DNA of 64,000 nucleotides from Naegleria gruberi (taxonomy: Eukaryota), in the NCBI GenBank assembly GCA_000004985.1, contig GG738866.1. One strand, written 5' to 3'. The notes under the pieces were generated by a model, which worked only from the letters and a program-made list of their open reading frames with translations, was not told where the DNA came from and made no database searches. The position numbers and the translations under genes were made by a program. Below are positions 22,447 to 61,637 of the stretch, piece after piece. The stretch's first letter is position 1. Each line of letters opens with the position of its first letter.

Positions 22447-22530
22447 GTAAGTATTTGATATTTTTATTGTAAATATTTAACATTTTACAATAATTATGTG
22501 AAATTTCTTAATTTGAATCACATGTATTAG

Positions 22531-23401: not shown

Positions 23402-23448
23402 TTTTTGAAATCAAGAGCAAACTTTATTCGAGTTGACATTGTAATAAA

Positions 23449-37321: not shown

Positions 37322-38399
37322 ATGTTTCGTCTACCTCTACAGGAAACATTTAAAACATCATCACTAACACATCAGAGATCATCTTTAGCACTGTTCCGGT
37401 GTTCATCTCTTTCTCAACATTATCAATACTCTAGAATTTTCATTTTCATATCACTTTTATTATTGTCATGTTTGTTATCTTCCATAAATTCTCAAGAGTT
37501 TACATTGAATCCTCTCGAGGGAAGAATATCTACCATGCAGTTCATAAACAGACGTACAGTTTATGTTCATACAGATAAATATGTTTATTTGAGTGCTGAC
37601 AAGGGTGTTCACTTTCAAAATTTTAATCAAAAGGCTAGAAATTGTCAAGAAGCAAAATGTATTCAAACCATTGCTAGACATCCTTTTGATGATAACGTAT
37701 TTATTTTAATTTCTAATTTGAAAAAGTTGTTTTACATTTGCACAGATCTCAATTCTGCCAATGAATTTGACATTGATAGAATTAATTGTGTAGAAAGACC
37801 ATTTCCAAATGATAATTCTGATGCTAAACAAGCTCCGATTGTGACCAAAGTAGTTTTCCATCCAAAAATTCATAACACTTTACTAGTTTTAATGAGTAAC
37901 AATAGATTGTATCTCAGTGAAACTTTGGCTAGTAATTTCTACTTTTTAAAGTCAGGTGTTAAACAAATTTCATTTGCAAATTCTGAATCAAAACTCTATT
38001 CCGATACTCTCTTGTTAGGTATCAAGGAAAGTGATGGAATTAGCTATTTTTTCAATATGGACAGTCGTTCTAGAAATGATGAGGATGATAATGAGATTAT
38101 TCGCCATGCTAGAGAATTCATGATGTATGGACCATTCCTTTTCGTTGCGACCATTGAGGAAGCAACAGAAAAATACCAAAAAGAAAAATACATGGCCAAA
38201 CTCTTTGTTGGTACTGATAATGGACGTTCTTTCAATAGAGTTTCAATCTCTCAATCCACTCAAAACCATATCATTGAAAAATCATTCATTATTTTGGATG
38301 GAAGCGAAGGTGCTGTATTGATTAATGTTCAACAAGAACAATCATCAGCTACTTCCTCATCTTCAACTTCTTCCAAGTATGGTAAAGTTTTCATTTCAG
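37322..38399 (+). CDS. Vps10-domain (sortilin-like) sorting receptor, exon 1
   Basis: The first ATG is at 37322 (the ORF-track start at 37292 is GTG). A signal/anchor segment IFIFISLLLLSCLLSS is present, with Asp-box-like SADKGVHF and GTDNGRSF. The exon ends ...KVFISG before GTAAGT at 38400. Confidence 0.7.
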
Positions 38400-38441
38400 G
38401 TAAGTTGATAATTTGAATATATAATACTTATATTCTTTTAG

Positions 38442-44080: not shown

Positions 44081-45070
44081 TCAATCTTTCCAATTTGAAA
44101 ATTGTCTTCTGACTTTAAAATCTAAAGGCGTTGAAAATTTTCTCTGTGCAATAGCAAAGCATTCTTCTTTCAAATGTTTGTCTTCCACTGCTGAATAAAG
44201 AAAGGAAAAGGTATTCCATTGAAACTCATTTAAAAAGGATTTTTTAGAGTATCTGACCAGTAGGTCAGGGGCAAGATCACGGTAGCTTGCCAATACATTT
44301 GGATTCCTATTGATTGCTTGAATCAGTTCGTTAGAATGGCCATCAACTACAATTTCATAAACAAACAAGTTATTGAACATGTATTGGAAAAATGAAATAT
44401 TATCGCGAGTGGCCAACACATTTCTAATTAAGGTTCTCTTATGAGTATCAAATCCATACTTATCAAATAATAGTATCAATTCATAATTTAAAAACATGTC
44501 TCTGAATAATATCGTGGGATCATAGATTGATTGTATCATTCTAACGAATGCATACTCTTTCTCTTCCTCCAAGTCGACAATCAGCTCATTACTATTCGAT
44601 TCTATCATACCCAATGAAAACATATTCTTGAAAAAGTCACTATTCTCTGCAAGCACCATTTTGTGTACTTTCAAGCTGTTAATCTCTTTCCCTTGTTTCA
44701 TAAACTTAATAGTAAAATCAGAGTACAGATCATTATTAAAAAATGATCTATAACCGTCTGTTATAATTAATTCTTTGACTCGTGGTGTTTCATTCTCTTC
44801 TTCAGAAGTGGGGAGTGTGAAATATTCAGTAGAAAACGATGAATCAAACAGTAGTGGTAAATTATTGTTAGATTCCAGTGTTAGAGGAACCTTTCTAAAT
44901 TTCCTTGTTTGCAAATATTCAGCAACAAGTAGTCCATCTCTTTCTTCCTTCCTATCCTTCTCAAAGACTGAGTAAAATTCCCACCTCCACTCCTCAAAGC
45001 TCTTCCCTTTACATTCTTCAGCAAAGGTTAGGCTCATATATTGATCATTATTGGCCACAAATCCAAACAT
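44081..45070 (-). CDS. BTB/POZ-domain protein (329 aa)
   Basis: ATG at 45070. The BTB-like block reads DFTIKFMKQGKEINSLKVHKMVLAENSDFFKNMFSLGMIESNSNELIVDLEEEKEYAFVRMIQSIY. Confidence 0.6.
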   Translation of the reverse strand: MFGFVANNDQYMSLTFAEECKGKSFEEWRWEFYSVFEKDRKEERDGLLVAEYLQTRKFRKVPLTLESNNNLPLLFDSSFSTEYFTLPTSEEENETPRVKELIITDGYRSFFNNDLYSDFTIKFMKQGKEINSLKVHKMVLAENSDFFKNMFSLGMIESNSNELIVDLEEEKEYAFVRMIQSIYDPTILFRDMFLNYELILLFDKYGFDTHKRTLIRNVLATRDNISFFQYMFNNLFVYEIVVDGHSNELIQAINRNPNVLASYRDLAPDLLVRYSKKSFLNEFQWNTFSFLYSAVEDKHLKEECFAIAQRKFSTPLDFKVRRQFSNWKD

Positions 45071-45426: not shown

Positions 45427-45834
45427 ATGTATAATCTAGAACAATTAGAACAACTTTCACTCTACGTGATGAGAAGGTTTGGAGAGTATTTCCAAGTCGT
45501 CTCAGCCTTTTCCAAAATTAATAACAACAACTCGGATAAGATTGAACAAATCAGAGGAAGAATTAACGAACAACGTGAATTGTTGGATACATTAAAGAAG
45601 GACGTTGAAATCAATAGGAACAAGTACTCGGAATCAGAAATCAAAGCCTTTGAAATTGAAATTGAGAAGAGTGAGAAGAGGCTAGCCAAGCAAGTTGAAA
45701 TTCTTCATCAATACGAAAATCAAGTTGATACAATGCATCATACGACATTTAATTTGAGTTTTAAATTAATTGTACAGGTGATCATTGCTCTAACTGTTTT
45801 GGCGTTAATGTTTTATATGGTGTTTTTTTGGTAG
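45427..45834 (+). CDS. Small tail-anchored coiled-coil protein (135 aa), with a SNARE-like topology but no clear SNARE motif
   Basis: ATG at 45427. A heptad-rich region is followed by the C-terminal transmembrane segment LIVQVIIALTVLALMFYMVFFW at the extreme C-terminus. Confidence 0.45.
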   Translation: MYNLEQLEQLSLYVMRRFGEYFQVVSAFSKINNNNSDKIEQIRGRINEQRELLDTLKKDVEINRNKYSESEIKAFEIEIEKSEKRLAKQVEILHQYENQVDTMHHTTFNLSFKLIVQVIIALTVLALMFYMVFFW

Positions 45835-46190: not shown

Positions 46191-49100
46191 ATGAAACAGT
46201 TACTCTCACCGAAATCTATATTACTTTTTATAATACTATCTATAGCTTCTATTGGATGGATGGTTATTGGCCAAGAGTTGCCCTACTCTTCATCATGGTC
46301 AATTACCAACTCGAATATTCAAACATGTAATACTATACGTGGTCAACAGGATGATTACTTTTATATGGGAGGTAAATTCAGTGGCAGTATTGATACAAGT
46401 GCTATAGGAGTCATATCTCCCGATAGATTTAATAACTCTGTAGTTTTGGCAACATCATTAACGAGTGAGGCGTATGCACTTAAGGTTCAAAAGTCAACTG
46501 GTAAGGTTGACTCATCTATTCAATTTGCACCAAGTGGCAATACAGAAACGATTCAAAGTTCAGAAATTATTTCAATAGGAACGAGTACTCAATTTCAAAT
46601 ATTTGCAGGAATTATCAATACAAATCAAGGAATTTTCATTTCAAAGTTTAACACCAATGGAATGGAATGGACACAAACCTATTTATTTTCGAGTGGAAAT
46701 TACATTACAGTGAGAGATTCAAAAGTGGTTGATACGAGTATTGTCATTGTAGGAACATACAGAGGAGACATTTCCATTAGTAATGGTTCAATTGCTCTCA
46801 CTTCATCCTCGAGTCAAGATTACGAAAACATGTTCATTGCTATTTTGGATATGACTGGATCTATTCAATATATCTATACTAATAATGGTAATAATGCTAA
46901 AGTCATACCACAGAATTTGCACTTGTCTTCAAATGGTGAATTTTGCTATGTTATGGGAGTTTTCAGCGGATCAACTTTGTCATTCACCAAATCCACTAGC
47001 TCATCAGAACAGCTAACTCTCACTTCAACAACTTCTACAGATCAGTACGATTTATTCCATCTCAAATATTCCATCACTAGTAAGGAGTTGGTTTGGCTCA
47101 TGGGCACTACAGGACCTCATCAGATGGACTATTCATACAAGATTGTTGGCAGCTCACCTTCGACCATTTATGCCTTCAGGGATATTATCATTGATCAGGG
47201 ATATAGTGAAAGCAGTGATTGTGGCAGCCAAACAGATGTTCCTATTGCAACTCTGACAAGGAATTTATTCACACTTCTCTCATCGAATGTTCTCTTTGGT
47301 GGAGCATCAGCCACAGGTTCTCAGAGTTTGAGCTTTTTCAAAGCTTTGGATTTTGCAGGATTTTCCAATTCAATTCTCTTCGATAATGGAACTACTTCAT
47401 CTGTTATGAACATTTCCAGATCGACACCACTAACTCTCTCTTCGACAGGATTTACTACCTGTCCTAACAAACAAGCTCTGATGAACTATTCCACAGAGTA
47501 TACATTGAATTATGCCAGTGGTTCCGAGACTATCCTTCTCAAATCCTATGTGAGCATACCAAAGTTATTGTTCACTTCCAATTACAATGTTGGTGTAATT
47601 AATTATGCTGGTATTACATCCACTTTGACATTTAACATGCCAAGTACACTGCTGAGTGTTATCGATAAGAATCTGGTTGTTGATGTTGGTGGAACGAAAA
47701 GGCCAGTGAAGAATTCCAATAATGTCTATACGGCAGACTTGTTTTCAACCACTGTAGGATGGAATAATATCACTATTTATTTCAATAATACTGCTCAGAA
47801 CAGGTATGATTTGATTTCTATGAATTCTGTCAAGACTTTCTTCTTTGATGATTCTTTGGTTATCAGTATTCAGAATAGTACAATTTTATTCAATAGCAGT
47901 ACTTTGAATAATGGTAGAGGTACACTAACATTGACAGGATTATTGAATTCCACGTATAATTTCCCACAGGAATATGTCAGCTCTATTATGTGTAGAGTGG
48001 CTCAACAAAATTTTGCTACCAATATTGATGGTAATCAGATTACATGTCAAAATGTTCCATTTTCAGAGAGGAACACGACAGTAGTACTTGTCTATAGATA
48101 CAGCAACTCTATTTTCTATAACATTTCAAGAAGTTTGGATTTGAGTTTTATTGAAACACGGACACTTACAACTTCTTCACAATACAGGGTGATTACAACA
48201 GATGAGCAAACCAAGGGATCGTTTGCTTTGTCTTTAACAATCGGTAAAACAATGGGCTCTTTGGATGTCAAATTGCAAGCAACAAATCAAAATGGAGCTG
48301 CTTCTTATTTACCATTTACAGTTTCATCAGGTACAAGTATTTCTGCAACCTTGGCAGTGGCTCAATTTGAAAAGGCAAATTTGAAATTTATGGTAAAATC
48401 TCAGAATGACTATGTGGATTTTACCAACACAATTTCTATTCAATTCTTGAAGCAAGTCAAGTTTACATCCTTGTCGAGTACCATTGATAATTCGAGACAA
48501 ATGAAGACCGCATTCAGTATTCAACCAAACCTGATAGATTCATTGAAATCTCAGCTAACTTGCCAATATAATGAGAGTCCAACATTGAGAACTGCTTTGA
48601 ATAGTACTGATAATACATGTAATATTGACAATCGATTCCTTTCCACAAACAATACTCTCCAATTATTGCTTAATATGGGAAATAATGTTTATTTACAAAT
48701 ATCAGACAGTATTTCATTGACATCTCCCTCACTACCAACAATATCCTTCCTATTTACTCCTAATTTTGGTATCAGTGGATTTACTAATATTACAACCGAA
48801 ATTACATCTCAAGATTTGATATTTGAACAATTGAAAAGAAATTTACAAATAGAAATTAATTCCATTCGTTATACACCAACTGTTGGGTCAGATGGAAAGG
48901 TTTCATTTCCACTTGTAACCTCAGTAGCCGGCTGGAATAATTTGACAGTTCTTGGAAAATATTCAACCAATGACACTTCATACTCTGTGATCAGCACTCA
49001 GAGTAAGATTTATTTCTTTAATACTCCACAAACAAATATTTTCACTTTCCCTAATGGAAATATCACACTCCTCACTCCATCCAGCAGTAGAAATTTCATG

Positions 49101-52100
49101 ATTGACTTGGTATTGAGTTCTCCCTTTGATATTCCTTATACCTTACTGAGTCCAAACAACTTTTTCTGTAACATATTTGGAGAGTCATATAGTGCCCAAT
49201 TTGTTTCCAGTACCAGAGTTCAATGTCAAAATGTAGTAAGCAGAGAAGGTGAAACTGATTCTTTTATCACAACTTCTATTCGAAATACCACATTTGAAAT
49301 ATCTTCGAGAAGTCTGTTCACCTTTGTTAAAACAAGAGAAATCAAACCTGTTGGAGTGTCTCTCATTCAATCTACTGATTTTTATATTGGAACATTGCCT
49401 CAAACACAAGCAACCTATTCGTTGCAGATTAATATTGAAGATAGCTTGTTCACTGCTCTACAAATTGAAAATACTCAAAAACTTGCTATTCAACTTACTG
49501 ATCTGCTAACCAATCAGAAACAAGTCAGATTCCCACAAATTACCAGAGGATTAAACATGTCTACTCTTTCACTCAACTTGGACGTTGCCACTTCCCAGTC
49601 CATTTTCAAATATGAAATTAGAGTATTGTTTAAAGGACTGGAGATTTCTCAAGTTGCATTAAAGTATCTTCTTGTGAGAGAATCACCAATTGGAAAGGTA
49701 ATTTCCTCCAGAGATTCCACTGATAATTTACTCATCAACATGCCAAGAATTTTATCAACAGCAACTTCAATTAGTGACGATGAAAAGTTAATTATGGACA
49801 GAGTGTACTGCTCTCTTGGAGATTCAACTCTTTCCAAGGTTACCTATTCTGTGAGTGGTGGTATTCAATGTAAATTTGCAACTGATTTCACATCAACACA
49901 AACCAAATCAGTTCAACTCTTCATGTCCATCAATACTGTGGCCACAAATAGTTCAGTTATCAAAATATCCTCCAACTCACAACAAGCATATCCAATCTAT
50001 TGTTATTCAATTCCTCACTATTTACCAACTGTTTGTTCTTCAAAGGGAACTTGTAAGCAAACTGATAACTGTACATGTACCAACAATTTCCAAGGAAATG
50101 ATTGCAGTTTCACCCAATGTTTTGGAATTGCATCCACTGATAAGACTGTCTGCAGTGGATACGGTCAGTGTCCAACCTCAAATAATTGTGTTTGTAATGC
50201 AGGATTTAGTGGCACAAGATGTGAAAATAAGGTCATGTATGTTTCTGAGGACAAATCATGGCTATCCACCAGTGAATCTATGAGCAGTTTACCAAGATCG
50301 CAACTCTCTGCTCTAATAGAAACAGAGAGTTTGTCCAAAGTTGAATGTGCATCTTTATTAGCAACTGCATCTATTGATACCATTGGAGTTGATGCATTTT
50401 GTTTTGTGAACTCTGTTGATATTGTAATCATGTTGAACAGGAACGTTATGAACAATACTGTATTACTATCTTCCTCGACTATTGGTAGCATCCTTTCGAA
50501 ATCATTTTCACAATATCAAGTGCTTGACACTAAAGGAAAGTCAACCAGTCCAGAAATTCTATTAAGAACTAGTTTCTCAAGTGTGAATTTCCCTGCTGTG
50601 GTTGAACCGCTCATTGTCACTGCATCACCTCTCTCAAATTTAGGTCTATCATGGCAAAGTGATGATCCAACTATTAACAGTCAACTTTCTTCATTTGCCA
50701 ATCAGTCAATTATCAAACTGAATTTAGGAGCAAAAACAAGACAAAATGTAATTTCTAATGGAGCTGTTAATTTGGTTTTGCAAGTTGCCGATTCAACATT
50801 CAATACTTTGACCAAATATTCCACTAAATTGCTTTTGAATCAATCTTCCAACTCTGGAGAAGCAATATTCAATTATGGAGGATCTCAAATTGAATGCCAA
50901 TCCTTTGCCTCATGTGATATTGCCTTTAGTGTTGCTCCTATTAAGGGGTCTTCTATTAGGTCATCTTTCAATCCTGACATTGGAAATATAACTACAAACT
51001 ACATTCATAATTTGAAAAGTTTTGCAGAGGGTTGTTCTACTGTATATTCCCTGCGTAGCAGTGAGAGCAAACAACTGTGTATTAAGATTAGAGATAAGGG
51101 TGTTATTCAATACTATTTGGATGTCAATACTCAACAAGATAATTCCATTGTAGTCACTTTGAGTCAATTCAACACTTCCTCTAAAGTATATTCAATTATT
51201 ACCAGTTCTAACTCTGATATTATACAATTGATTAATTTGAATACTAACACTTCTGTGCAAGGCGCGAAGGATGGAAGTAGTTCAGCAGTATATTTCAAGG
51301 GAATCAAAGAGCAAGAACCATACGAGATTAGATTTACTAGTTCATTAGGAAAGGCCTCCCTCAAGATTCAATATTCCACAAGTATGCAACTCAAGCTCTT
51401 AACATTCATTCCTAAAGTAATGGGAAGAAAATCTTCATTGATATTGTCTTCTCTGGTTGACTCTGATAGCAGCACAGTTCAACAAGTTGATTTCCTGTTA
51501 ACAAAGAAAGGCCAATCACAATCCACGTCTCTTCCAATAGTTCAACAATATAATGATCTGACCTTTTCACAAGCCCTGTTGAATGCTTCACTTTTAGATA
51601 GTGGATCTTTCTACATTCTGAGAGTTCAATCAAGGAATGCTAAAGGACATGTAACCTATATTGAACAATCTTTCTATGTACAATTAGAACCAAACTATAA
51701 TATCAATTGTGCTATTACTCCAAAAGAAGGAATTGCTTATGAAACAGAATTTACAATTTCATGTTTATCCAATAATTTAGATTTAGATACTTATCAATTC
51801 CTCATAACGAATGGTACTCATCAATTAGAGCTTTCCAAAGGAAGAAAGAGAGCATTCTTTACTAGAATTGGATTTTTACAAAATGCCAAACTTCAAGTCA
51901 AAACTAATGATGTTTGGAATAGTGAAAAGACAACAGAGTTCCCAATCCAACTCAAACATCCAAAACAAGTTTATCAAACATCTTTAGAATTTTATCAATA
52001 TTTAACAAGAAAAGTTCAGGATCTTCTCAATGAAGAAGTTTCTCCAAACAGTTTAGGATTTGATTATGTCAACAGTGTCATCACCTTCATGTCAATTCTT

Positions 52101-54182
52101 GGTGCTGACTCGAGTATTGTACCAAATTATGAATATAGAACAGAGTTGGGTTTGAGCTTGCTGGATATATTCGAAAAAGTCGTTGGCTATGCTAAACAGA
52201 ATAAGGATTCTACGTATATTGGAAGAAGTTTACCGATAATGAATCAATTCTTGCAACAATTTTCAAATACCACACAAACAAATAGAGATAGAGTCTATGG
52301 ACTGATCAACTCTACGTTGGATATATTACAAGACTTTTCATCAACTAATCCAAGTAGTAGTATTAATGATATATTTACTATTGTTGACAGAATTATTCCA
52401 CTAGTAGCAACTGATTTACAAACTCAATTATTCAACAAATTGAGAATAGTTAATCAACAGAATTTGTTTGGAAAGATGAAGAATGGTTATTTGGTTTCAA
52501 ACTTCTCCAAACTTTCCAATACTACTCTTGAAAATTATCAAATCATTAACTTGAATGTGTTGGGAAGAAAAATTTCAGAGCCAATCAATCTCGGTACACT
52601 TTCACTCAATCTTCCTTCACAAATTAGTTCAGATTCTTTGAATTCTCTATTTGAAGTGAGTGCTCTAATTTATCAAACCAAATCCAAAACAAGTAGAACA
52701 TTACAACAAGCTACCTCTATTCCTAATGTACAAGTTGCACTAACGAAGAATTCCATTCCACTTACCGATTCTTCACTAAATGTCAACATTACCTTCCCAA
52801 TCCAATTGAATAGTAAGACAAGAGCCCAATGTAGATCATTTTCCTTCCAGGAAGAACCAAAGAATCACACAACATTCCAATCCGAATCAGCAGTGGTATG
52901 CTTAGTGGCACTCTCAGATTTGAATAGAAACTTGTATATTTATACCTATGAAGGTATTTTTATAGGACCACTGCCACAAAATAGTGATAATGTGAAAGGT
53001 CCACTTCTTCAGGATAACACCTTGACCATAGCTTTGGCCACCATTTTGTCAACTGTTGGTTTGATATTTATATGCTGTTCACTCCTGGTATTGTTGTTCA
53101 TTATTGGAAAATGTAGAGGAAGAGGAAAGAAGGAAAATACACCAAATATGACAGAGTTTACCTATAAGGCATCTGGATCTCATTCTCCAATTGGAATTTC
53201 AGATCATTCTTCATCTGATAAGAATTCTGATACTTCATCAGAAAAACAACAAACTGAAAAGAATATCAATCAACGAGTGACTGAGAATGTTGAGCTATTG
53301 AATGGACAATATCAATTATTAGAAACCATTTCCATTCACTCCAACTATACTCTCTATAGAGCTAATAATATTAGTACAGGTCAGGTTGTGTGTATTAAGA
53401 AGATTGGATTTTCTTCTTTTGAGGAAATTAATTCATCATCCTCTGTTATTGTGAAAGAGTATACGAACATGTCTCGTACTCAACATGCTAATATTGTCAA
53501 GTTACACGAGGTGTTTGTTGATACAAGTCTTAAGGCAGTTTGTTTAGCTCTTGAATATTTCGAGCTTGGAAATTTGAATGAATTACTACTCAAGCGAATT
53601 CAACAAAACCAAATATTTGATGAGATTCATATTGGTCAGATATTGTATCAACTTTCCCAAGCTCTTTCGTATCTTCATGATGAATGTGGATTGTGTCACA
53701 GGAATATCAGGTTGGAAAACATATTTGTAAGACAATTTACACCACAAAAAATTGATATTTGTTTGGGTGAATTTACAGATTCGAGATCCAGAAACTCACT
53801 CAAAATAGAACATGATGTGCAAGACCAATCGTTTGGATCTGCTATAAGTTCTTATAAGTTTGGTAATTTTACCAAAGCTGTGAAGGAAAATGCAATCAAA
53901 TCTACCAGTGACCAGTTTACGTCTGAAGATACATTCCAGGTTGCGTGTGTAATGTACAAACTAATGTCGTTTGATATGGAGAGTAAGGTCAATTCATTAT
54001 TTGAGGAGTATGAGTTTGAAAAAGACGTATTCACATTGCTAGAATCAAGGATACACTCATCATATTCTAGTGAAATAGTTTCCATCATCTTGTCAATGTT
54101 TGCTCGAGAAGAAAAAAATCGTCCAACAATGAACCAAGTCACCAATTTATTGGGCAATGTATTCAAGTTTGAAACACAATAA
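46191..54182 (+). CDS. Receptor-like transmembrane pseudokinase (2663 aa). It has a signal peptide, a ~2250-aa Ser/Thr-rich ectodomain with two CFG-type EGF-like modules, one transmembrane segment and a cytoplasmic kinase-like domain with degenerate catalytic motifs.
   Basis: The N-terminus MKQLLSPKSILLFIILSIASIGWMVIGQ is a signal peptide. EGF modules lie near 50000-50230 (CSSKGTCKQTDNCTCTNNFQGNDCSFTQCFGIASTDKTVCSGYGQCPTSNNCVCNAGFSGTRC). The transmembrane segment is IALATILSTVGLIFICCSLLVLLFIIG. The kinase-like domain has VVCIKKI (VAIK-like), HANIVKLHE, YLHDECGLCHRNIRLENIFV (HRD changed to HRN), ICLGEFTDS in place of DFG, no GxGxxG loop, DTFQVACVMYKLM and NRPT. Confidence 0.8.
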   Translation: MKQLLSPKSILLFIILSIASIGWMVIGQELPYSSSWSITNSNIQTCNTIRGQQDDYFYMGGKFSGSIDTSAIGVISPDRFNNSVVLATSLTSEAYALKVQKSTGKVDSSIQFAPSGNTETIQSSEIISIGTSTQFQIFAGIINTNQGIFISKFNTNGMEWTQTYLFSSGNYITVRDSKVVDTSIVIVGTYRGDISISNGSIALTSSSSQDYENMFIAILDMTGSIQYIYTNNGNNAKVIPQNLHLSSNGEFCYVMGVFSGSTLSFTKSTSSSEQLTLTSTTSTDQYDLFHLKYSITSKELVWLMGTTGPHQMDYSYKIVGSSPSTIYAFRDIIIDQGYSESSDCGSQTDVPIATLTRNLFTLLSSNVLFGGASATGSQSLSFFKALDFAGFSNSILFDNGTTSSVMNISRSTPLTLSSTGFTTCPNKQALMNYSTEYTLNYASGSETILLKSYVSIPKLLFTSNYNVGVINYAGITSTLTFNMPSTLLSVIDKNLVVDVGGTKRPVKNSNNVYTADLFSTTVGWNNITIYFNNTAQNRYDLISMNSVKTFFFDDSLVISIQNSTILFNSSTLNNGRGTLTLTGLLNSTYNFPQEYVSSIMCRVAQQNFATNIDGNQITCQNVPFSERNTTVVLVYRYSNSIFYNISRSLDLSFIETRTLTTSSQYRVITTDEQTKGSFALSLTIGKTMGSLDVKLQATNQNGAASYLPFTVSSGTSISATLAVAQFEKANLKFMVKSQNDYVDFTNTISIQFLKQVKFTSLSSTIDNSRQMKTAFSIQPNLIDSLKSQLTCQYNESPTLRTALNSTDNTCNIDNRFLSTNNTLQLLLNMGNNVYLQISDSISLTSPSLPTISFLFTPNFGISGFTNITTEITSQDLIFEQLKRNLQIEINSIRYTPTVGSDGKVSFPLVTSVAGWNNLTVLGKYSTNDTSYSVISTQSKIYFFNTPQTNIFTFPNGNITLLTPSSSRNFMIDLVLSSPFDIPYTLLSPNNFFCNIFGESYSAQFVSSTRVQCQNVVSREGETDSFITTSIRNTTFEISSRSLFTFVKTREIKPVGVSLIQSTDFYIGTLPQTQATYSLQINIEDSLFTALQIENTQKLAIQLTDLLTNQKQVRFPQITRGLNMSTLSLNLDVATSQSIFKYEIRVLFKGLEISQVALKYLLVRESPIGKVISSRDSTDNLLINMPRILSTATSISDDEKLIMDRVYCSLGDSTLSKVTYSVSGGIQCKFATDFTSTQTKSVQLFMSINTVATNSSVIKISSNSQQAYPIYCYSIPHYLPTVCSSKGTCKQTDNCTCTNNFQGNDCSFTQCFGIASTDKTVCSGYGQCPTSNNCVCNAGFSGTRCENKVMYVSEDKSWLSTSESMSSLPRSQLSALIETESLSKVECASLLATASIDTIGVDAFCFVNSVDIVIMLNRNVMNNTVLLSSSTIGSILSKSFSQYQVLDTKGKSTSPEILLRTSFSSVNFPAVVEPLIVTASPLSNLGLSWQSDDPTINSQLSSFANQSIIKLNLGAKTRQNVISNGAVNLVLQVADSTFNTLTKYSTKLLLNQSSNSGEAIFNYGGSQIECQSFASCDIAFSVAPIKGSSIRSSFNPDIGNITTNYIHNLKSFAEGCSTVYSLRSSESKQLCIKIRDKGVIQYYLDVNTQQDNSIVVTLSQFNTSSKVYSIITSSNSDIIQLINLNTNTSVQGAKDGSSSAVYFKGIKEQEPYEIRFTSSLGKASLKIQYSTSMQLKLLTFIPKVMGRKSSLILSSLVDSDSSTVQQVDFLLTKKGQSQSTSLPIVQQYNDLTFSQALLNASLLDSGSFYILRVQSRNAKGHVTYIEQSFYVQLEPNYNINCAITPKEGIAYETEFTISCLSNNLDLDTYQFLITNGTHQLELSKGRKRAFFTRIGFLQNAKLQVKTNDVWNSEKTTEFPIQLKHPKQVYQTSLEFYQYLTRKVQDLLNEEVSPNSLGFDYVNSVITFMSILGADSSIVPNYEYRTELGLSLLDIFEKVVGYAKQNKDSTYIGRSLPIMNQFLQQFSNTTQTNRDRVYGLINSTLDILQDFSSTNPSSSINDIFTIVDRIIPLVATDLQTQLFNKLRIVNQQNLFGKMKNGYLVSNFSKLSNTTLENYQIINLNVLGRKISEPINLGTLSLNLPSQISSDSLNSLFEVSALIYQTKSKTSRTLQQATSIPNVQVALTKNSIPLTDSSLNVNITFPIQLNSKTRAQCRSFSFQEEPKNHTTFQSESAVVCLVALSDLNRNLYIYTYEGIFIGPLPQNSDNVKGPLLQDNTLTIALATILSTVGLIFICCSLLVLLFIIGKCRGRGKKENTPNMTEFTYKASGSHSPIGISDHSSSDKNSDTSSEKQQTEKNINQRVTENVELLNGQYQLLETISIHSNYTLYRANNISTGQVVCIKKIGFSSFEEINSSSSVIVKEYTNMSRTQHANIVKLHEVFVDTSLKAVCLALEYFELGNLNELLLKRIQQNQIFDEIHIGQILYQLSQALSYLHDECGLCHRNIRLENIFVRQFTPQKIDICLGEFTDSRSRNSLKIEHDVQDQSFGSAISSYKFGNFTKAVKENAIKSTSDQFTSEDTFQVACVMYKLMSFDMESKVNSLFEEYEFEKDVFTLLESRIHSSYSSEIVSIILSMFAREEKNRPTMNQVTNLLGNVFKFETQ

Positions 54183-54189
54183 AAGTTTA

Positions 54190-57033
54190 TTATTTCCTTG
54201 GTGATCTTGGTGAAATTTGATCGTAGGAAACAGCAGCAAAAGCTTTTTGCAAGCTAGCTAACTTGATCTCAATTTCATCTAATAATTGAGGAGGTGAAGA
54301 AGGAATTGGGTAAAAATAATCTTCTCTCAAAGGTGATTGTGGAATATCCATATGCCCTTGGGAGATTGATAAACCTTCTTTAGTTGTTTCTGCCATGATA
54401 GTAGCTAATTGCTCAAGTTGGCCAATAGCAAATTTCAAATCATTCTCGAGTTTCTTTGTGTAAGCTTCCAAACCTTGTATACCGTCCGTAAGAGTCTTGA
54501 CGGTTTCTTGTTGGCGTAATATTTCCCCATTCAGATTTTCAATTGTTCCTCTTAGTTCTGAACTTTCCTTTGCGTTTTGGTTTTTTAACTTTTCCAACGC
54601 TTCTTGCTTGTCAACAAGTAGCTCCTTTTGAGATTGAGATAATTTTTCATTCTCTTGGAGAATACCATGTAAATCTTTCATAGACTCCTGCAAGAGTTGA
54701 ATCTCCTTCTTTGCCTGACTCTTTTCCTTCTCTAAAATTGATCGTAGCTCGTCTTCTCTTATTTTCATTTCAGCATCTGCTTTTTTCTTCTCATTAAATA
54801 CCTTTTGCATTTCATCTTTTAGCAACTTTAAAGTTTCTGTCTGCAAGAAAATACCTTCTTCTAGCTGTTTTGTTTTTTTCCTTTCCTTTTCTAAATAATC
54901 TTTAAATGTTTCCAAATCATTCTTAAGGCGCCCAATATCTTCAACCGATTTTTCTTGATATTCTTTAAACTCCTCTCCCTTGGTTCTCACTTTTGATTTT
55001 TCCTTTTCCAGCAATTCTGCTTTTGAATTAACCAACTCTTTAAGCTTGTTTGTTTCTTCTTTTTCAACCAAAAGGTCCATCTCAATCTTGCTCAAGTCAA
55101 TTTCCATATTCTGTTTATACAGGTTCATTTCCTTTTCAAATTCTTTCTTTTCATTCATAATTTTTTCTATCTCTTTGTTTTTTTGTGTAAGCTCTTCTTC
55201 AAATTTCTTAAGGAAGTTGTTTAAATCTCCAATTTCTTTCTGATTTTGATTTTTCAAGTCTGTCAAGCTTCTATTTTCCTCTGAAAGTTCGTTTTCTATA
55301 TGCTTCAAACTCTCTACCACCTTCTCAAGTTCTTGTTTAACTGCTGATTCTCTTTGTAACTTGGATTCACCTTCTAAGTTTGCACGTTCAATGCCTTCAA
55401 GAGATTTTTCTAATTCCTGCTTGACATTTGCGAGCTCATTGGATAAATCTTCTTCTTTTTGATTCTTTTCAATCATCAACTGTTTGATATCAACAAGATC
55501 TTTGTGTAATTCTCTTACAGAGTTACTTTCTCTAGTGATTTGTTCTTCCCTTTCGCTTAACTTTTCTTTAAGGGAGCATATCAAGTTCTCCTTTTCAGAT
55601 AATTGAGTGGATAGATTGGCCTTCTCAGATATTATAACGGCCAATTGTTCTGTTGCATTCTTGGCCTCCTCTTCAAGAATTTTAAGCTTGATTTCTCTTG
55701 AAGATTTATCTTCCAAAAGAGAATTGAGTTCCTCTTGAAGATTTAATATATCTTTTTTCAGATTTGTCAAGTCTTGTTGCAACTCACTGTTTTCGTGCAT
55801 TAAATCTCTCACCCTATGCTGTTGTGCCTCTATGAAACTCTCAGTTTTGACTCTTGATACAGTATTCTCAGATACGATTTCTTTTAGTCTCGAGTTGTCT
55901 TTTTCGAGATCATTAACACGGTTTTTGAGCTTTTCAGTTTCATCCAAGATTGCTTGCTTTTCATCTTTTTCAGATTGGATATTTTCTGTTAGTGAGATTA
56001 CCAAGTTAGATTTTTCTTCGTGCAATTTATCAATAGTAGTTCTCAAGTTTTCAACTTCACTCTCGCTTGAATGAAGAATACCTTGTATTTTAGCTTTAAT
56101 GTCTTCTTTTTCTTTCTTGAGGTCATCCCTTTCCTTTTCGATAGCAGACGATTTGTTTTCCAATTGTTTCAACTTTCCATCTGTATCTGAAATAACTTTT
56201 TGTAGATTTTCAATGTTCAAATCAGAAACTTCCAATTTAGAACATAAATCCTTATTAATATCTTTGAGAGCTACAATCTCATTATTAAGAACAGAACATT
56301 CTTGTTGTAATTGGTCATTCTTCGATTTCAATTCTTCTAGAGAGGATGTAATATCTTGAATCCTTGCTTCCGTATCCAATAACTTTTCAGTAAGGGTGGT
56401 ATTTTGGGAAATAAAATTAATTTTCTCATTTTCTGCAATAGTAGTCATTTCTATTAGCTGTTGTTCGAGCTCTTTGTACTTCTGCATTTGATGTGACAAA
56501 TCAGACTTTGAATTTGAAAGCTCGTTATCGAGAGCTTCCTTTTGTGAAAGTAGTTGTAGATTTTCATCCTTGGTGGATTCAATTGTGTTTTGCTGATCTT
56601 GGACTTGTGAGGTGCAGTCATCAAGTGACTCCTTTAATTTTAGAATTTCTGATTGTGATTGAGAGTACTTTTCAGTTAACTCTTGATTTTTCTCCTCTTG
56701 GACTTTTCTAAATAGATCAAACTCCTTGCATTTAGAATTGATCGATTCATTCATAGAAAATAATTTCGATTCCTTTTCCTGTAAGAGTTCTTCTTTTTCT
56801 GCAATATTATTTCCCAAGGTTAATATTTTATCTTTCAACATATCCATTGTGGAATTCTTGCCGTAAAGCTCATTTTTCATTCGATTAAGTTGATCTTCCA
56901 AATTGCTTAGTGAGTTTGTAAGCTCGTTGTTGGTAGTTTCTAATGTTTGCTTTTTCTCAAAAAGGCCAGTGTTAATATTTTCCATTTCACAAATCTTTGC
57001 TTGTTTCTCTTCGACAATTTTCTTTTCCTTCAT
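54190..57033 (-). CDS. Giant coiled-coil gene, segment 4 of 4 (947 aa; the C-terminus is Pro/Ser-rich and ends ...DQISPRSPRK)
   Basis: This segment starts with an ATG (57033) at the third frame change (MKEKKIVEEKQAKICEMENINTGL...). It overlaps the segment 3 ORF by 47 nt. Confidence 0.55.
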   Translation of the reverse strand: MKEKKIVEEKQAKICEMENINTGLFEKKQTLETTNNELTNSLSNLEDQLNRMKNELYGKNSTMDMLKDKILTLGNNIAEKEELLQEKESKLFSMNESINSKCKEFDLFRKVQEEKNQELTEKYSQSQSEILKLKESLDDCTSQVQDQQNTIESTKDENLQLLSQKEALDNELSNSKSDLSHQMQKYKELEQQLIEMTTIAENEKINFISQNTTLTEKLLDTEARIQDITSSLEELKSKNDQLQQECSVLNNEIVALKDINKDLCSKLEVSDLNIENLQKVISDTDGKLKQLENKSSAIEKERDDLKKEKEDIKAKIQGILHSSESEVENLRTTIDKLHEEKSNLVISLTENIQSEKDEKQAILDETEKLKNRVNDLEKDNSRLKEIVSENTVSRVKTESFIEAQQHRVRDLMHENSELQQDLTNLKKDILNLQEELNSLLEDKSSREIKLKILEEEAKNATEQLAVIISEKANLSTQLSEKENLICSLKEKLSEREEQITRESNSVRELHKDLVDIKQLMIEKNQKEEDLSNELANVKQELEKSLEGIERANLEGESKLQRESAVKQELEKVVESLKHIENELSEENRSLTDLKNQNQKEIGDLNNFLKKFEEELTQKNKEIEKIMNEKKEFEKEMNLYKQNMEIDLSKIEMDLLVEKEETNKLKELVNSKAELLEKEKSKVRTKGEEFKEYQEKSVEDIGRLKNDLETFKDYLEKERKKTKQLEEGIFLQTETLKLLKDEMQKVFNEKKKADAEMKIREDELRSILEKEKSQAKKEIQLLQESMKDLHGILQENEKLSQSQKELLVDKQEALEKLKNQNAKESSELRGTIENLNGEILRQQETVKTLTDGIQGLEAYTKKLENDLKFAIGQLEQLATIMAETTKEGLSISQGHMDIPQSPLREDYFYPIPSSPPQLLDEIEIKLASLQKAFAAVSYDQISPRSPRK

Positions 57034-60000
57034 CCTCCAACTTCCTCATTTCTTCCAACAGTCTTTCCTTTTCTTTAGAAAATTCTTCACTCTTCTTTTC
57101 ATTTTCCTTCTCCAATACATTGATGGTCTCTTCAAGTTTCAATACGCAATTATCATACTTATTCTTATTCTGTTCCATTTCTTGTCTTGCCTTTTCCAAT
57201 TCATTCTTTGTATCTTCAAGCTGTCTAATTATTTCTTCTTGCTTTTCACTTAGTGCCAATTTCTTTGCCTCAAGATCTAAATTATGTTGTTCAAGTACTT
57301 GAACCTGTTTTTTCAAATCTTCAATACAGAGAGTATCTTGTTGTGCTCTCTGTTTCAACTCTACGCTAGTATTTTCTGCTTCATTAAAGCGTTCTTCAGC
57401 ATTTGCACGAAGGGTTTCTTCTTTCAACAAACCAATTTTCAAAATATCTAGCTTCTCTTGAAGAACTACTCGATCACTTTCAAGCTTCTTCTTGTCATTA
57501 TTTAAATTCTTTTCTGACTCTTTCAGAATTGAAATTGACTTTTCTAGTTCTTTCACTTTATCTGTTTGCTTCTTAGCATTCATGGTAGCATCCTTGAGTT
57601 CATATTTCAATGTATCAATAGTTTTACCAAGATATTTCACTTCTTCTAGGAGTTTTGATTTCTCTGATTCTAATTGCTTAATTTTTGAATTGTGTGAATT
57701 AACTTCTTTTGCATTTTCTTTGAGTTGCTCTTTTTGGGTGTTCATAACATCTTGAAGAACTTTGATTTTCTTTTCTTGAGTATTACACATTATCTGTGTT
57801 TCTTCTTTGTCTTTAGTCAATAAGTCAGCCTCCTTAGATTTATCAAGAATCTCTTTAGACAATCTTGTTATTGCTTCAGAAGTAGTTCGTTCAAGATTAT
57901 ACTTTTCTGTATTTAATTGAGATATATATTGATCCAACATAGTCTTCTGTTGCTCAACATTGTTAATGCTCTCTTTCAGCTCTTGGTTGGAGGATTCAAG
58001 ATTCTCTATAAATGATTGTTTTTCTTTTGATGTTTGAATTTCCTTGGTAAGAGTTTCTTGAATAACATTTCTTTCAGATGATAATTGTTGAATTTGTTCA
58101 GAGAGTTCACAAATCTTTGCTTGTTTCTCCTCGACTATTGCCTTTTCCTTCTTTACTTCATCCTCCAACTTCCTCATTTCTTCCAACAGTCTTTCCTTTT
58201 CTTTAGAAAATTCTTCACTCTTCTTTTCATTTTCATTTTCCAATACATTGATGGACTCTTCAAGTTTCAATACACAATCACCATACTTATTCTTATTCTG
58301 TTCCAATTCATTCTTTGCATCTTCAAGCTGTCTTATTATTTCTTCTATATCTTTCTTTAAATTCTGTTCTGACTCTTGCAGTGTTTCAAGGGCCCTCTCC
58401 AGCTCTTTCACTTTATCTTTGTACATTTCTAAATTGTTGGTAGCGTCTTTGAATTGAGATTCTAAATTATTAATAGTTTGACCAAGATCCTCCAATGTTC
58501 GTTGGCGATTATCATCTTCCTGCTGTTTGTCATTAATAACCGAAGCAAGTTTAATCTCGCCTTGTCGAACATTTTCACGTAAATTGTTTACAACTGTTTC
58601 CAATTCTTGATTACATTTGGTGAGGTTTTGCACTGTGTCTTCAAGATGTTTCAATTTATCAAGAAGGGTAATATTTGAGGATGCCAGTTGATTTGAAAGT
58701 TCCTTTTCTTTTCTGAAACCATATTGTATATTTTGTAGCTCCTGTGAAATACGAGTGTTTTCTTTTTCTAATTGATTGTTTGCTGTTGATAAAGCCTGGT
58801 TATCGTCCGATAACTTGAGCAGCAAATCTTCATTTTGTCTAATATTGTCTGTCAGGTTTGATTTCTCTGATTCCAACTGTTTGATTAGTGAAATTTGTGA
58901 AATGGTTTCTTTAGCACTTTCTTTGAGTTGCTCTTTTTGAGTGTTCAAAAGGTCTTGAAGAACTTTGATACTCTTGTCTTTAGCATTACATGCTGTTTCA
59001 GTGTTGCTTATCCTTTCTTTAAGCTCTTTAGTAGAAGTCTCAAGAAGGTTCTCCATTATTGATTGTTGCTCTTTTGATAATTGAATTTCATTATTGAGAG
59101 ACTTTTGAATGGCATCTCTTTCAGATGATAATTGTTGAATTTGTTCAGAGAGTTCAGTGTTGATCTTTTCTATTTCACAAATCTTTGCTTGTTTCTCCTC
59201 AGCTATTTCCTTTTCCTTCTTTACTTCATTTTCTAAATTCTTCATTTCTTCCAACAGTCTGTCCTTTTCTTTAGAAAATTCTTCACTCTTCTTTTCATTT
59301 TCCTTCTCCAATACAGTAATAGATTCCTTTAGTTTCAATACACAATCATCATACCTATTCTTATTCTGTTCCAGTTCATTCCTTGCATCTTCAAGCTGTC
59401 TTATTATTTGTTCTCTATCACTCTCAAGGCTCTTCTTGTCATTATTTAAATTCTTTTCTGACTCTTTCAGAATTGAAATTGACTTTTCTAGTTCTTTCAC
59501 TTTATCTGTTTGCTTCTTAACATTCATGGTAGCATCCTTGAGTTCATATTTCAATGTGTTAATGGTTTTACCAAGATATTTCACTTCTTCTAGGAGTTTT
59601 GATTTCTCTGATTCTAATTGCTTAATTTTTGAAGCATTTTCTTTGAGTTGCTCTTTTTGAGTGTTCATAACATCTTGAAGAACTTTGATTTTCTTTTCTT
59701 GAGTATTACACGTTGTCTGTATTTCTGCTTTGTCTTTAGTCAATAAGTCAGCCTCCTTAGATTTATCAAGAATCTCTTTAGACAATCTTGTTTTTTCGTT
59801 TTCCATGACTTCCTTTTGGGTTTTCTTTTCTCCAGAAAGATCTATTATTTTGTTTTCTAACTGTTTAATACGTGACTGCTGTTCAAGTAAATCAAGTTGT
59901 TTAGACTCTAAATTATTAGCCAACTCTATGTTCTGAGTTTTGATTTGGGTCAAGTCTTTCTCTAATCCTGTTATTGTTTCATAATTTGCTTGTTGAAGAT

Positions 60001-60262
60001 TGTCCTTTTCTGTATTTAATTGAGATATATATTGATCCAACATAGTCTTCTGTTGTTCAACATTGTTAATGCTTTCCTTCAACTCTTGGTTGGAGGATTC
60101 AAGGTTGGCTATCATTAATTGTTTGTTTTTTGATACTTGAATTTCGTCGTTGAGCGTGAATTGAATGGCATCTCTTTCAGATGATAATTGTTGAATTTGT
60201 TTTGATAGCTCAGTGTTGATCTTTTCTATTTCACAAATCTTTGCTTGTTTCTCTTGAGTCAT
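56987..60262 (-). CDS. Giant coiled-coil gene, segment 3 of 4 (1091 aa, internally duplicated)
   Basis: This segment starts with an ATG (60262) created exactly at the frame change (MTQEKQAKICEIEKINTEL...). It contains duplicated ~1 kb and ~2 kb units. Confidence 0.55.
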   Translation of the reverse strand: MTQEKQAKICEIEKINTELSKQIQQLSSERDAIQFTLNDEIQVSKNKQLMIANLESSNQELKESINNVEQQKTMLDQYISQLNTEKDNLQQANYETITGLEKDLTQIKTQNIELANNLESKQLDLLEQQSRIKQLENKIIDLSGEKKTQKEVMENEKTRLSKEILDKSKEADLLTKDKAEIQTTCNTQEKKIKVLQDVMNTQKEQLKENASKIKQLESEKSKLLEEVKYLGKTINTLKYELKDATMNVKKQTDKVKELEKSISILKESEKNLNNDKKSLESDREQIIRQLEDARNELEQNKNRYDDCVLKLKESITVLEKENEKKSEEFSKEKDRLLEEMKNLENEVKKEKEIAEEKQAKICEIEKINTELSEQIQQLSSERDAIQKSLNNEIQLSKEQQSIMENLLETSTKELKERISNTETACNAKDKSIKVLQDLLNTQKEQLKESAKETISQISLIKQLESEKSNLTDNIRQNEDLLLKLSDDNQALSTANNQLEKENTRISQELQNIQYGFRKEKELSNQLASSNITLLDKLKHLEDTVQNLTKCNQELETVVNNLRENVRQGEIKLASVINDKQQEDDNRQRTLEDLGQTINNLESQFKDATNNLEMYKDKVKELERALETLQESEQNLKKDIEEIIRQLEDAKNELEQNKNKYGDCVLKLEESINVLENENEKKSEEFSKEKERLLEEMRKLEDEVKKEKAIVEEKQAKICELSEQIQQLSSERNVIQETLTKEIQTSKEKQSFIENLESSNQELKESINNVEQQKTMLDQYISQLNTEKYNLERTTSEAITRLSKEILDKSKEADLLTKDKEETQIMCNTQEKKIKVLQDVMNTQKEQLKENAKEVNSHNSKIKQLESEKSKLLEEVKYLGKTIDTLKYELKDATMNAKKQTDKVKELEKSISILKESEKNLNNDKKKLESDRVVLQEKLDILKIGLLKEETLRANAEERFNEAENTSVELKQRAQQDTLCIEDLKKQVQVLEQHNLDLEAKKLALSEKQEEIIRQLEDTKNELEKARQEMEQNKNKYDNCVLKLEETINVLEKENEKKSEEFSKEKERLLEEMRKLEDEGKENCRRETSKDL
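57460..60250 (-). repeat. Nested tandem segmental duplications inside the coiled-coil gene, with units of about 1.1 kb and about 1.96 kb
   Basis: Positions 57487-57875 and 59443-59805 are more than 95% identical. Positions 57880-58100 match 59990-60200. The ctttacttcatcctccaacttcctcatttcttccaacag block recurs at about 57030, 58150 and 59220. Confidence 0.75.
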
Positions 60263-61637
60263 CTATTTCCTTCTTCACTTCATTCTCCAACTTCTTCATT
60301 TCTTCCAACAATCTGCCGTTTTCTTTTGAAAATTCTTCTAATTGTTTCATTCTTGAATTAGCTTCATTAGCATTTTCTTTGAGTTGCTCTTTTTGAGTGC
60401 TCATGAGGTCCTTGAGAATATTGATTTGTTTCTCTTTAGCGTTACATGTTGTTTCAGCATTGCTAATCTTTTCTTTCAACTCTTGATTAGTGTGCTCGAG
60501 ATTATCGATAACCGATTGTTTGTCTTTTGATACTTGAAATTCCTTCTTAAGAGTTTCTTGAATAGAATCTCTTTCAGATGATAATTGTTGAATTTGTTTT
60601 GATAGCTCAGTGTTGATCTTTTCCATTCCACAAATATTTGCTTGTTTCTCTTGAACCATTTCTTTTCCCTTCTTCACTTCATTCTTCATTTCTTCCAACA
60701 GTCTTTCTCTTTCCTTTGCTAAACGGCAATCTTCCAACCGCATATCTTCAATCCTTTTTTCATGTTCATCCTTCAAGTTATCATACATTTTCTCAACTTC
60801 TAAAATTTGTACATGTAGACCTCTCAATTCATCATTTCTGTGTGCTAAATCTTCACTAAGATTTTCTATTGTTTTCATAGCCTCGGCAACTTGCTGCTCG
60901 GTTTTGAAGAGTGCTTCACCTTTACCAAGGTTTTCTCCAGTTAAATTTTCAACCTCACCCAGCAATTCTTCAATTTTCTTTTCATTCTCACAAATGGTGT
61001 GACAAAGATCCTGTTTGTTTTGTTCGAGAGACTTGGATAACTGCACTAGATCTTCTAAATATTGGTGCATTTTCTCCTTCTCTTGTAAAAGTTGCTGCCT
61101 CTCAGAAGCAATCTCATTGTTAGCTTGATCGAGTTGGTCAATTTTCTTCTTTTGTTCCATTGTTTGTTCTTTCTCTACATTGAGTTCGTTTAATCTTTCC
61201 GAAATTGAGTGTTGTAAAACGCTAATTTTCTCATCCTTTCTTTCGATATCACTCTTAAGTTGTTCGGTTTCATTCTCCATCACTTTCAACTTCTCAACAA
61301 TAATATTTGCCTCTTCTCTTCTCTTGTTGCAACAGTCCTCAAGATCTTTTTCTCTAGCATTTAGTCTTTCTGTCAATCGCTTTATATCCTCCTCGAGTTG
61401 TGTTGTTCTTTGAGATTTAGTATCCTGTTCATAGGTTAAATCCTTAATTTTTTCTCGGAGACTTTGGGATTCTACTTGTTTTTTCTCCCACATATTAGTA
61501 ATTTTTGCTAGCTTTTCATCTTTCTCATTTAATTGGAGAGAAAGGCTATCATTTCTTGTTTGTAAAGCATTCAACTCTTCTTCCTTCTGTTGGTTAAGTT
61601 GGTCTAGAGCAGAAATATTGGACAGAGAGTCTTTCAC
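60231..61637 (-). CDS. Giant coiled-coil gene, segment 2 of 4 (frame shifted relative to segment 1; no ATG at its start)
   Basis: This frame opens with GTG immediately after a TAA and overlaps the segment 1 stop by 4 nt. The coiled coil continues (KDSLSNISALDQLNQQKEEELNAL...). The segment ends ...EVKKEIDDSRETSKDL*. Confidence 0.5.
   Translation of the reverse strand: MKDSLSNISALDQLNQQKEEELNALQTRNDSLSLQLNEKDEKLAKITNMWEKKQVESQSLREKIKDLTYEQDTKSQRTTQLEEDIKRLTERLNAREKDLEDCCNKRREEANIIVEKLKVMENETEQLKSDIERKDEKISVLQHSISERLNELNVEKEQTMEQKKKIDQLDQANNEIASERQQLLQEKEKMHQYLEDLVQLSKSLEQNKQDLCHTICENEKKIEELLGEVENLTGENLGKGEALFKTEQQVAEAMKTIENLSEDLAHRNDELRGLHVQILEVEKMYDNLKDEHEKRIEDMRLEDCRLAKERERLLEEMKNEVKKGKEMVQEKQANICGMEKINTELSKQIQQLSSERDSIQETLKKEFQVSKDKQSVIDNLEHTNQELKEKISNAETTCNAKEKQINILKDLMSTQKEQLKENANEANSRMKQLEEFSKENGRLLEEMKKLENEVKKEIDDSRETSKDL

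Follow-up and report, generated by a model that had tools for sequence, protein, structure and literature searches.

Introduction

Receptor pseudokinases have been studied well in animals and plants, but hardly in Discoba. One of them, HER3 (ErbB3), carries the motif HRN and retains a feeble activity. Pseudokinases can act as scaffolds, as allosteric partners or as substrates, and in most kinomes about 10% of the members are without K72, D166 or D184; such losses are common in the Nek expansions of excavates, 71% of the Giardia Neks lacking at least one of these residues (PMC3218828). Protists widely possess single-pass transmembrane (TM) kinases whose ectodomains are lineage-specific, and about 40% of the non-kinase domains of these proteins are without Pfam annotation (PMC10463195). 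The best-studied amoebic examples are the TM kinases (TMKs) of Entamoeba (PMC2211552, PMC2880585); Naegleria is not mentioned in the survey of protist TMKs (PMC10463195). In this report, we describe a very large gene of Naegleria gruberi, NAEGRDRAFT_67254, whose product joins a modular ectodomain to a degenerate protein-kinase-fold domain. It lies in a stretch of 64,000 nucleotides from contig GG738866.1 (assembly GCA_000004985.1), which we call the window and to which all N. gruberi coordinates refer.

46191..54182 (+): whole single-exon gene NAEGRDRAFT_67254, 2663 amino acids (aa) plus stop

We conclude that this gene probably encodes a Naegleria-restricted, single-pass type I surface glycoprotein with a modular ectodomain and a kinase-fold tail that is unfit for canonical phosphotransfer and would signal by non-catalytic means. 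Both the catalytic base and the metal-binding Asp of the DFG motif have been replaced, and no Gly-rich loop is left; the tail should therefore be incapable of canonical phosphotransfer.

The open reading frame (ORF) runs uninterrupted for about 8 kb and contains no runs of N. Its translation is 100% identical, over 100% coverage, to XP_002677533.1 (NAEGRDRAFT_67254; UniProt D2VEE9), which is annotated merely as “predicted protein [Naegleria gruberi]” on a 469-kb contig. Since the NCBI model and the ORF coincide, no intron is needed. A preliminary description of the window had drawn attention to this ORF, and all of the peptides that it quoted (VVCIKKI, HANIVKLHE, LALEYFELGNL, DTFQVACVMYKLM, NRPT, HRNIRLENIFV and LGEF) are present in the translation. 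It erred in calling the organism an amoebozoan. N. gruberi belongs to the Heterolobosea, in Discoba, and the phylogeny against dictyostelid tyrosine-kinase-like (TKL) and receptor kinases that was then proposed is therefore not a relevant test.

A predicted pseudokinase domain

The Pfam Pkinase profile (PF00069) matches aa 2388-2651 with E = 4.6e-21 and 75.8 bits (cut-off 31.7), covering profile positions 15-258 of 263. This significant and nearly full-length match bears out the cytoplasmic kinase fold of the preliminary description, which had itself suggested the PF00069 search, and it places the domain in the eukaryotic protein kinase superfamily. The profile PF07714 (PK_Tyr_Ser-Thr) reaches 51.8 bits, below the score of PF00069. 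The domain and its altered motifs are as follows.

53352..54143 (+): degenerate protein-kinase-fold domain, aa 2388-2651 (PF00069; NEK2 match)
53328..53354 (+): equivalent of the Gly-rich loop, ISIHSNYTL opposite IGTGSYGRC in NEK2, with zero glycines (NEK2 alignment)
53697..53705 (+): HRN in place of HRD, the catalytic Asp being replaced by Asn2505; HTA in N. fowleri (NEK2 alignment, codons)
53769..53777 (+): EFT in place of DFG, Asp being replaced by Glu2527 and Gly by Thr; EFG in N. fowleri (NEK2 alignment, codons)
53781..53801 (+): SRSRNSL, the start of the activation segment (two-species alignment)

Near both the catalytic loop and the DFG motif, the alignment to NEK2 has no gaps, and the codons of the two altered motifs were read directly (cac agg aat for HRN; gaa ttt aca for EFT). 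The catalytic loop reads HRNIRLENIF opposite HRDLKPANVF in NEK2; its Lys has become Arg, and its Asn (Asn2510) is kept. The DFG region reads LGEFT opposite LGDFG. Also kept are the Lys of strand beta3 (Lys2403, in VVCIKKI opposite ILVWKEL) and the Glu of helix alphaC (Glu2423, in VKEYTNM opposite VSEVNLL). The activation segment is about 20 aa longer than usual. Following PMC3218828, we define a pseudokinase by the loss of at least one of K72, D166 (of HRD) and D184 (of DFG). Here D166 has become Asn and D184 has become Glu, with K72 retained, and by this definition the cytoplasmic domain is a predicted pseudokinase.

These results agree with the preliminary description on the missing Gly-rich loop and on the change of HRD to HRN. 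Its statement that LGEF replaces DFG is right as to the loss of the Asp, but the change is better put as DFG to EFT. Its broader claim, that the catalytic machinery is lost, holds for both Asp residues and the Gly-rich loop, but not for Lys2403, Glu2423 and Asn2510, which are conserved in both species of Naegleria. Two ways in which the loss might have proved illusory had also been named: catalytic residues present at shifted positions, and a missed intron that supplies them. As to the first, there is no conserved acidic residue nearby that could substitute; the Asp three residues past EFT in N. gruberi is a His in N. fowleri. We dropped the idea of an intron that restores the catalytic residues in view of the gap-free alignment over both motifs and the identity of the ORF to the annotated model.

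The closest solved kinase in a search of the Protein Data Bank (PDB) with the single N. gruberi sequence was NEK2 (E = 1.1e-11), followed by NEK7, CDK1, PKR, NEK1 and others. A profile of the two Naegleria sequences again put NEK2 first (E = 1.3e-18), ahead of Wee1-like kinase 2, NEK1, NEK7 and PKR. The identity to the NEKs is about 25%, and Wee1-like kinase 2, PKR, CDK and CAMK kinases score close behind. The kinase domain thus appears nearest to the NEK-type Ser/Thr kinases, and membership in the NEK family is unproven. No closeness to tyrosine kinases (TK) or TKL kinases was found; of these, only RIPK1 (single-sequence search) and DDR2 (profile search) occur in the two lists of the top 60 PDB matches, both of them low down.

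Conservation in Naegleria fowleri

An exhaustive HMMER scan, in which the membrane-proximal ectodomain (aa 1350-2300) was searched against 1.84 billion representative proteins, matched a single other protein, FDP41_011304 of N. fowleri (2993 aa). JGI metagenome contigs, scanned twice with conserved peptides, yielded no relatives, and neither these scans nor the HMMER scan revealed any relative outside Naegleria. We have accordingly found one member in each of two Naegleria species. Word-index searches retrieved the protein's own entry alone for the full-length query, no entry for the cytoplasmic part and weak bacterial kinases alone for the two-species kinase profile; since the last two missed even the Naegleria entries themselves, none of the three bears on paralogs.

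The N. fowleri protein is collinear with its N. gruberi counterpart over essentially the whole length, with 28% identity by BLASTP (2344 columns) and 34% by global alignment. The identity is spread evenly along the protein, at 21-43% per 100 aa. The architecture is the same: Pkinase matches with 90.4 bits, EGF_2 is present, and REJ is found at the homologous position. Its kinase domain reads IIIIKRI (Lys kept), REY (Glu kept), LCHTAVKLSNIFI (HRD to HTA, Asn kept) and CLGEFGHSRSR (DFG to EFG). In N. fowleri, then, D166 is replaced by Ala and D184 by Glu, and both catalytic Asp residues are absent from both species; we therefore consider the pseudokinase state to be old and maintained.

With 39% identity, 64% positives and few gaps, the kinase domain ranks with the better conserved stretches of the protein. 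CLGEF, the SRSRxSL motif of the activation segment, the FGNF further on, the Asp of subdomain IX and the Arg of subdomain XI are all invariant between the species. This pattern of conservation argues for a folded domain under selection rather than one in decay. A degraded active site has thus persisted since the two species diverged, which strongly favors a role of the kinase fold that does not depend on catalysis.

The two genes are also orthologous by position. The same-strand N. fowleri gene immediately upstream, of 136 aa, is 44% identical (E = 7e-32) to the product of the window ORF at 45427-45834 (135 aa), and sortilin-Vps10 and WGR-domain genes lie near the pseudokinase gene in both species. 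Segments of the sortilin gene have 58-71% local identity (tblastx), compared to 34% for the pseudokinase gene, which therefore evolves faster than its neighbors. Both the architecture and the motif losses of the N. gruberi gene are conserved in this positional ortholog.

Topology and proposed function

A Kyte-Doolittle hydropathy scan finds just two hydrophobic segments in the protein, aa 4-30 and aa 2276-2310. With a signal peptide, one TM helix and the kinase domain placed inside by the positive-inside rule, the protein is predicted by this heuristic to be a type I, receptor-like protein.

46191..46271 (+): predicted signal peptide, aa 1-27, with a hydrophobic core at aa 7-30 (Kyte-Doolittle scan)
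53022..53108 (+): single TM helix, about aa 2278-2306, with the basic stop-transfer sequence KCRGRGKK following it (hydropathy)
53112..53306 (+): Ser-rich juxtamembrane linker, aa 2308-2372, with conserved Y-K....SP..SD and DTSS patches

Between the two hydrophobic segments lies a predicted ectodomain of 2250 aa (aa 28-2277), in keeping with the Ser/Thr-rich ectodomain of about that size that had been described earlier. Its content of Ser plus Thr is 22-26%, and it contains 37 N-x-S/T sequons.

From these features we infer a surface location, glycosylation, and a scaffold or substrate mechanism, which might operate in the following manner. The ectodomain, arranged as an N-terminal beta-rich domain, four Cys-pair modules, two EGF modules, a REJ domain and a helical and beta membrane-proximal region, would engage a ligand, a surface or another cell, in a binding, adhesive or mechanical role. 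Such engagement could alter the clustering or the conformation of the protein. The pseudokinase domain may then act as a docking or allosteric partner, recruiting or activating a real kinase, or it may be the substrate of one. Candidate acceptor or docking sites are the invariant SRSRxSL in the lengthened activation segment, along with the Ser/Tyr patches that are conserved in the linker.

Several observations weigh against this proposal. The AlphaFold2 (AF2) model of the kinase domain has a predicted local distance difference test (pLDDT) score of 39; the fold assignment therefore depends solely on sequence profiles. Confidence is likewise low for the membrane-proximal region, modeled from an alignment of 2 sequences (overall pLDDT 48, falling under 40 for its beta-rich portion). 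The hydropathy scan that defines the signal peptide and the TM helix is a heuristic, not a trained predictor. In the literature searched, the gene identifiers of the two orthologs appear in no paper. Further, the Lys-Glu pair, the loop Asn and an acidic Glu at the DFG position are kept, which leaves room for nucleotide binding or for weak, atypical activity.

The last of these points can be extended to a receptor kinase that is weakly or atypically active in the manner of HER3, binding ATP by way of the Lys-Glu pair and the loop Asn and using Glu2527 as a metal ligand. It is consistent with this idea that K2403, E2423 and N2510 are conserved in both species and that the residue at the DFG position is Glu in both. 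The position of the catalytic base, however, is occupied by Asn in N. gruberi but by Ala in N. fowleri, so that no common chemistry has been kept there, and the catalytic loop of N. fowleri (HTAVKLSN) is wholly without acidic residues. Glycine is missing from the Gly-rich loop of N. gruberi, and that of N. fowleri contains a single one; this disfavors the positioning of phosphate. We thus regard such activity as unlikely and prefer a non-catalytic role for the kinase-fold tail.

Architecture of the ectodomain

The ectodomain is a succession of modules, most of them beta-rich. Those other than the EGF pair are listed here.

46272..47570 (+): N-terminal beta-rich domain, aa 28-460 (36% identical to the N. 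fowleri ortholog)
47595..49496 (+): tandem internal duplication, aa 469-707 resembling aa 861-1102 (local alignment)
51465..51800 (+): REJ-domain match, aa 1759-1870, profile positions 237-351 of 452 (PF02010)
51981..52481 (+): predicted helical segment of about 7 helices, aa ~1931-2097 (AF2 secondary structure, pLDDT 55-81)
52536..53000 (+): membrane-proximal beta-rich segment with the conserved Cys pair 2214/2237 (AF2 pLDDT <40; two-species alignment)

The N-terminal domain, which looks blade-like, has a repeated hhhGxFxG motif and a conserved (D/G)hFhxK(F/Y)...W motif. It has no Pfam match, and its profile finds no PDB entry at E<=10. A beta-propeller of the SBBP type was considered for this region and dropped, given the lack of a profile or PDB match.

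The duplication that follows has a local alignment score of 149, against 56+-10 for shuffled sequences. An alignment of 8 sequences shows it to be part of a run of four beta-rich modules of about 200 aa each, from about aa 460 to about aa 1268 (position 49994). Each module has one conserved Cys pair: 601/619, 791/810, 993/1012 and 1207/1227. A putative resemblance of these modules to the IPT/TIG domains of plexin/Met and Dictyostelium Tgr-like receptors was likewise considered and set aside; Pfam TIG has no match in either species, and the 8-sequence profile has no PDB match at E<=10.

The REJ match (PF02010) has E = 3.7e-6 and 26.2 bits in N. gruberi, with a cut-off of 25. In N. fowleri the score is 35.4 bits (E = 6.2e-9), and the match reaches profile position 428; the domain is thus above the Pfam cut-off independently in both species. 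The best-conserved stretch of the ectodomain, C.I.PKEGIA.ETEFTISC, falls in the REJ region. Structure searches with the helical segment that comes next returned only generic helical repeats. The membrane-proximal segment carries the conserved motif C.V..SDL....Y.

A REJ-GAIN layout is known from polycystin-1, and the region from REJ to the membrane invites comparison with it. One could imagine an ectodomain like those of polycystin-1 and the adhesion G-protein-coupled receptors (GPCRs), with REJ followed by a GAIN-like domain that is autoproteolyzed or mechanically unfolded, the whole serving as a mechanosensor with a kinase-fold output. REJ exceeds its cut-off in both orthologs, and the order of beta sandwich, helical bundle and beta-rich region with a Cys pair ahead of the TM helix fits the layout of polycystin-1. 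On the other hand, Pfam GPS (PF01825) has no match in either species, even at E<=10. The C.C.HL[ST] motif is absent, the corresponding sequences being VVCLVALSDL in N. gruberi and VTCSVKTSDL in N. fowleri. The low pLDDT of the beta part is a further difficulty, as is the two-species profile of the REJ-to-TM region, which matches nothing in the PDB at E<=10. An autoproteolyzed or mechanically unfolded ectodomain of this kind therefore seems to us quite improbable, and there is a similarly slim chance that REJ and the helical and beta stalk form a divergent, non-cleaving, GAIN-like mechanosensory unit wired to the kinase-fold output. If the latter were true, an ectodomain of the polycystin/adhesion-GPCR type would have been joined to pseudokinase signaling independently and specifically in Discoba, and in N. 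fowleri such a unit would serve a sensing of contact or substrate that is relevant to tissue invasion.

The EGF pair and a neighboring EGF gene

Between the Cys-pair modules and REJ lies a tandem pair of EGF modules.

50001..50222 (+): two tenascin/teneurin-type EGF modules with six Cys each, aa 1271-1305 and aa 1310-1344 (Pfam)

Pfam assigns the pair to EGF_2 (31.2 bits, cut-off 22.1) and to EGF_Teneurin (31.8 bits, cut-off 24.3), and thereby to the tenascin/teneurin type. The preliminary description had placed two tandem EGF modules at 50000-50230, had noted that they share their unit with a giant EGF gene at 10358-20696, and had seen in this a shuffling of domains between two neighboring giants. 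The first two statements stand: the Pfam families EGF_2, EGF_Teneurin and EGF_TEN, as well as a CFG linker, are common to both genes. The third is not supported.

A recent gain of the pair from the giant, by exon or domain shuffling, could be suspected from the shared families and linker in two genes of one 64-kb window. The pair, however, has a mean identity of only 35-40% to the giant's 45 units (best 50-54%), while the units of the giant have a mean identity of 47% among themselves, and the similarity of the DNA is marginal (68% over 91 nt). The EGF pair of N. fowleri, which sits at the same position of the protein, is 49% and 57% identical to that of N. gruberi, a likeness as close as that to the best of the giant's units; the pair must therefore predate the split of the species. 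EGF_2 and teneurin-type EGFs are, moreover, pan-eukaryotic families, and over 25 kb of DNA, with a dozen or so ORFs, lies between the two genes. We consider a recent transfer very improbable. The likeness of the pair to the neighboring gene appears to be a resemblance at the level of the family, shuffling is unsupported, and closeness within 64 kb adds nothing to the case for it.

The giant has the same six-Cys spacing and the CFG linker, but at least 45 units in place of two. A 50-N assembly gap at 14463-14512 splits it into the ORFs 10358-14602 and 14457-20696, and its reading frame and true number of units over this gap are uncertain. Some of its tenascin-type units are 100% identical to one another, such that the array may be collapsed in the assembly.

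Integrity of the gene and its surroundings

That so large a gene is an artefact, whether a surface-protein gene fused with a separate kinase gene by annotation or assembly, or a decaying pseudogene, has next to no probability: its unusual size alone and the assembly gap elsewhere in the window (14463-14512) could be held in favor of it, but the ORF is continuous and without N runs, a stop-free run of 2663 codons at the base composition of the window has a chance of ~1e-84, and the collinear architecture from signal peptide to kinase domain recurs in the genome of N. fowleri, which was assembled independently, as well as in a Logan assembly.

The upstream ORF used above to establish positional orthology (45427-45834, +; 9074-9484 in N. 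fowleri) encodes a coiled coil with a hydrophobic C-terminal tail, which looks tail-anchored and belongs to no Pfam family. The sortilin-Vps10 and WGR-domain genes occupy 37292-39949 (+) and 35596-36957 (-) and are syntenic with the N. fowleri locus (21767-26020), though in a different arrangement. In the window, the sortilin gene appears as two ORFs, which an intron probably separates. Downstream, at 54190-63034 (-), are four consecutive long ORFs of 947, 1091, 468 and 466 aa with only weak matches to Pfam families of the coiled-coil type; possibly these represent a single giant coiled-coil gene that introns or frameshifts interrupt. The first ORF ends 7 bp past the stop codon of the pseudokinase gene, and the genes converge tail to tail. 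The window also holds a formin at 26864-30133 (+; FH2 with E = 7e-54, plus GBD), a BTB/POZ protein at 44081-45070 (-) and an IQ-motif protein at 1617-5303 (+). Nothing suggests that these three form a functional cluster with the pseudokinase gene.

Comparison with known systems

A receptor-like pseudokinase in Naegleria is no surprise in kind, because about 10% of a typical kinome is predicted to be inactive and TM kinases are common in protists, and it overturns no existing view. What is new is the combination of REJ, EGF and duplicated Cys-pair modules with one TM helix and a NEK-like dead kinase. Our search of the literature found no description of REJ, EGF, one TM helix and such a kinase together. 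Also new are the restriction to Naegleria, an inactive site that is ancestral and maintained, and the finding that the pathogen N. fowleri has such a giant surface protein, one that evolves fast. As a protein of this sort in a lethal organism, the N. fowleri ortholog is a reasonable candidate for a role in adhesion or environment sensing and for antigen studies.

The likeness to the NEK kinases lies in the kinase domain, the best matches of which are NEK2, NEK1 and NEK7. NEKs are cytoplasmic proteins with coiled-coil or ankyrin tails and include no receptors, whereas the Naegleria protein is receptor-like.

In overall layout, the protein recalls the TMKs of Entamoeba histolytica, including PATMK (PMC2211552, PMC2880585, PMC10463195). 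These too come from an amoeboid protist and have a signal peptide, a Cys-containing and lineage-specific ectodomain, one TM helix and a kinase domain of the Ser/Thr/Tyr type. We detected no sequence relationship between the two, however, the scan with aa 1350-2300 having matched only the Naegleria homolog, and the ectodomain of REJ, EGF and Cys-pair modules is different from those of the Entamoeba proteins.

With polycystin-1, PKDREJ and suREJ, the protein shares a REJ domain placed in that third of a very large ectodomain which is nearest the membrane, with helical and beta regions after it. The REJ domain is partial, covering profile positions ~237-428 of 452. Unlike polycystin-1 and PKDREJ, the Naegleria protein has no GPS motif, no PLAT domain and no 11-TM or channel-like region, but one TM helix and a kinase fold.

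The Naegleria protein differs from HER3 in that its kinase domain is not of the TK or TKL kind, the NEKs being the nearest solved structures, and has, in addition, lost the Asp of DFG (EFT/EFG) and the Gly-rich loop. The Naegleria ectodomain is unrelated to that of HER3 and about four times larger. Nevertheless, the N. gruberi protein bears the same HRN substitution as HER3. Like HER3 and the receptor pseudokinases of animals and plants, it is a predicted type I protein that has lost its catalytic base, and a scaffolding or allosteric role would be expected of it.

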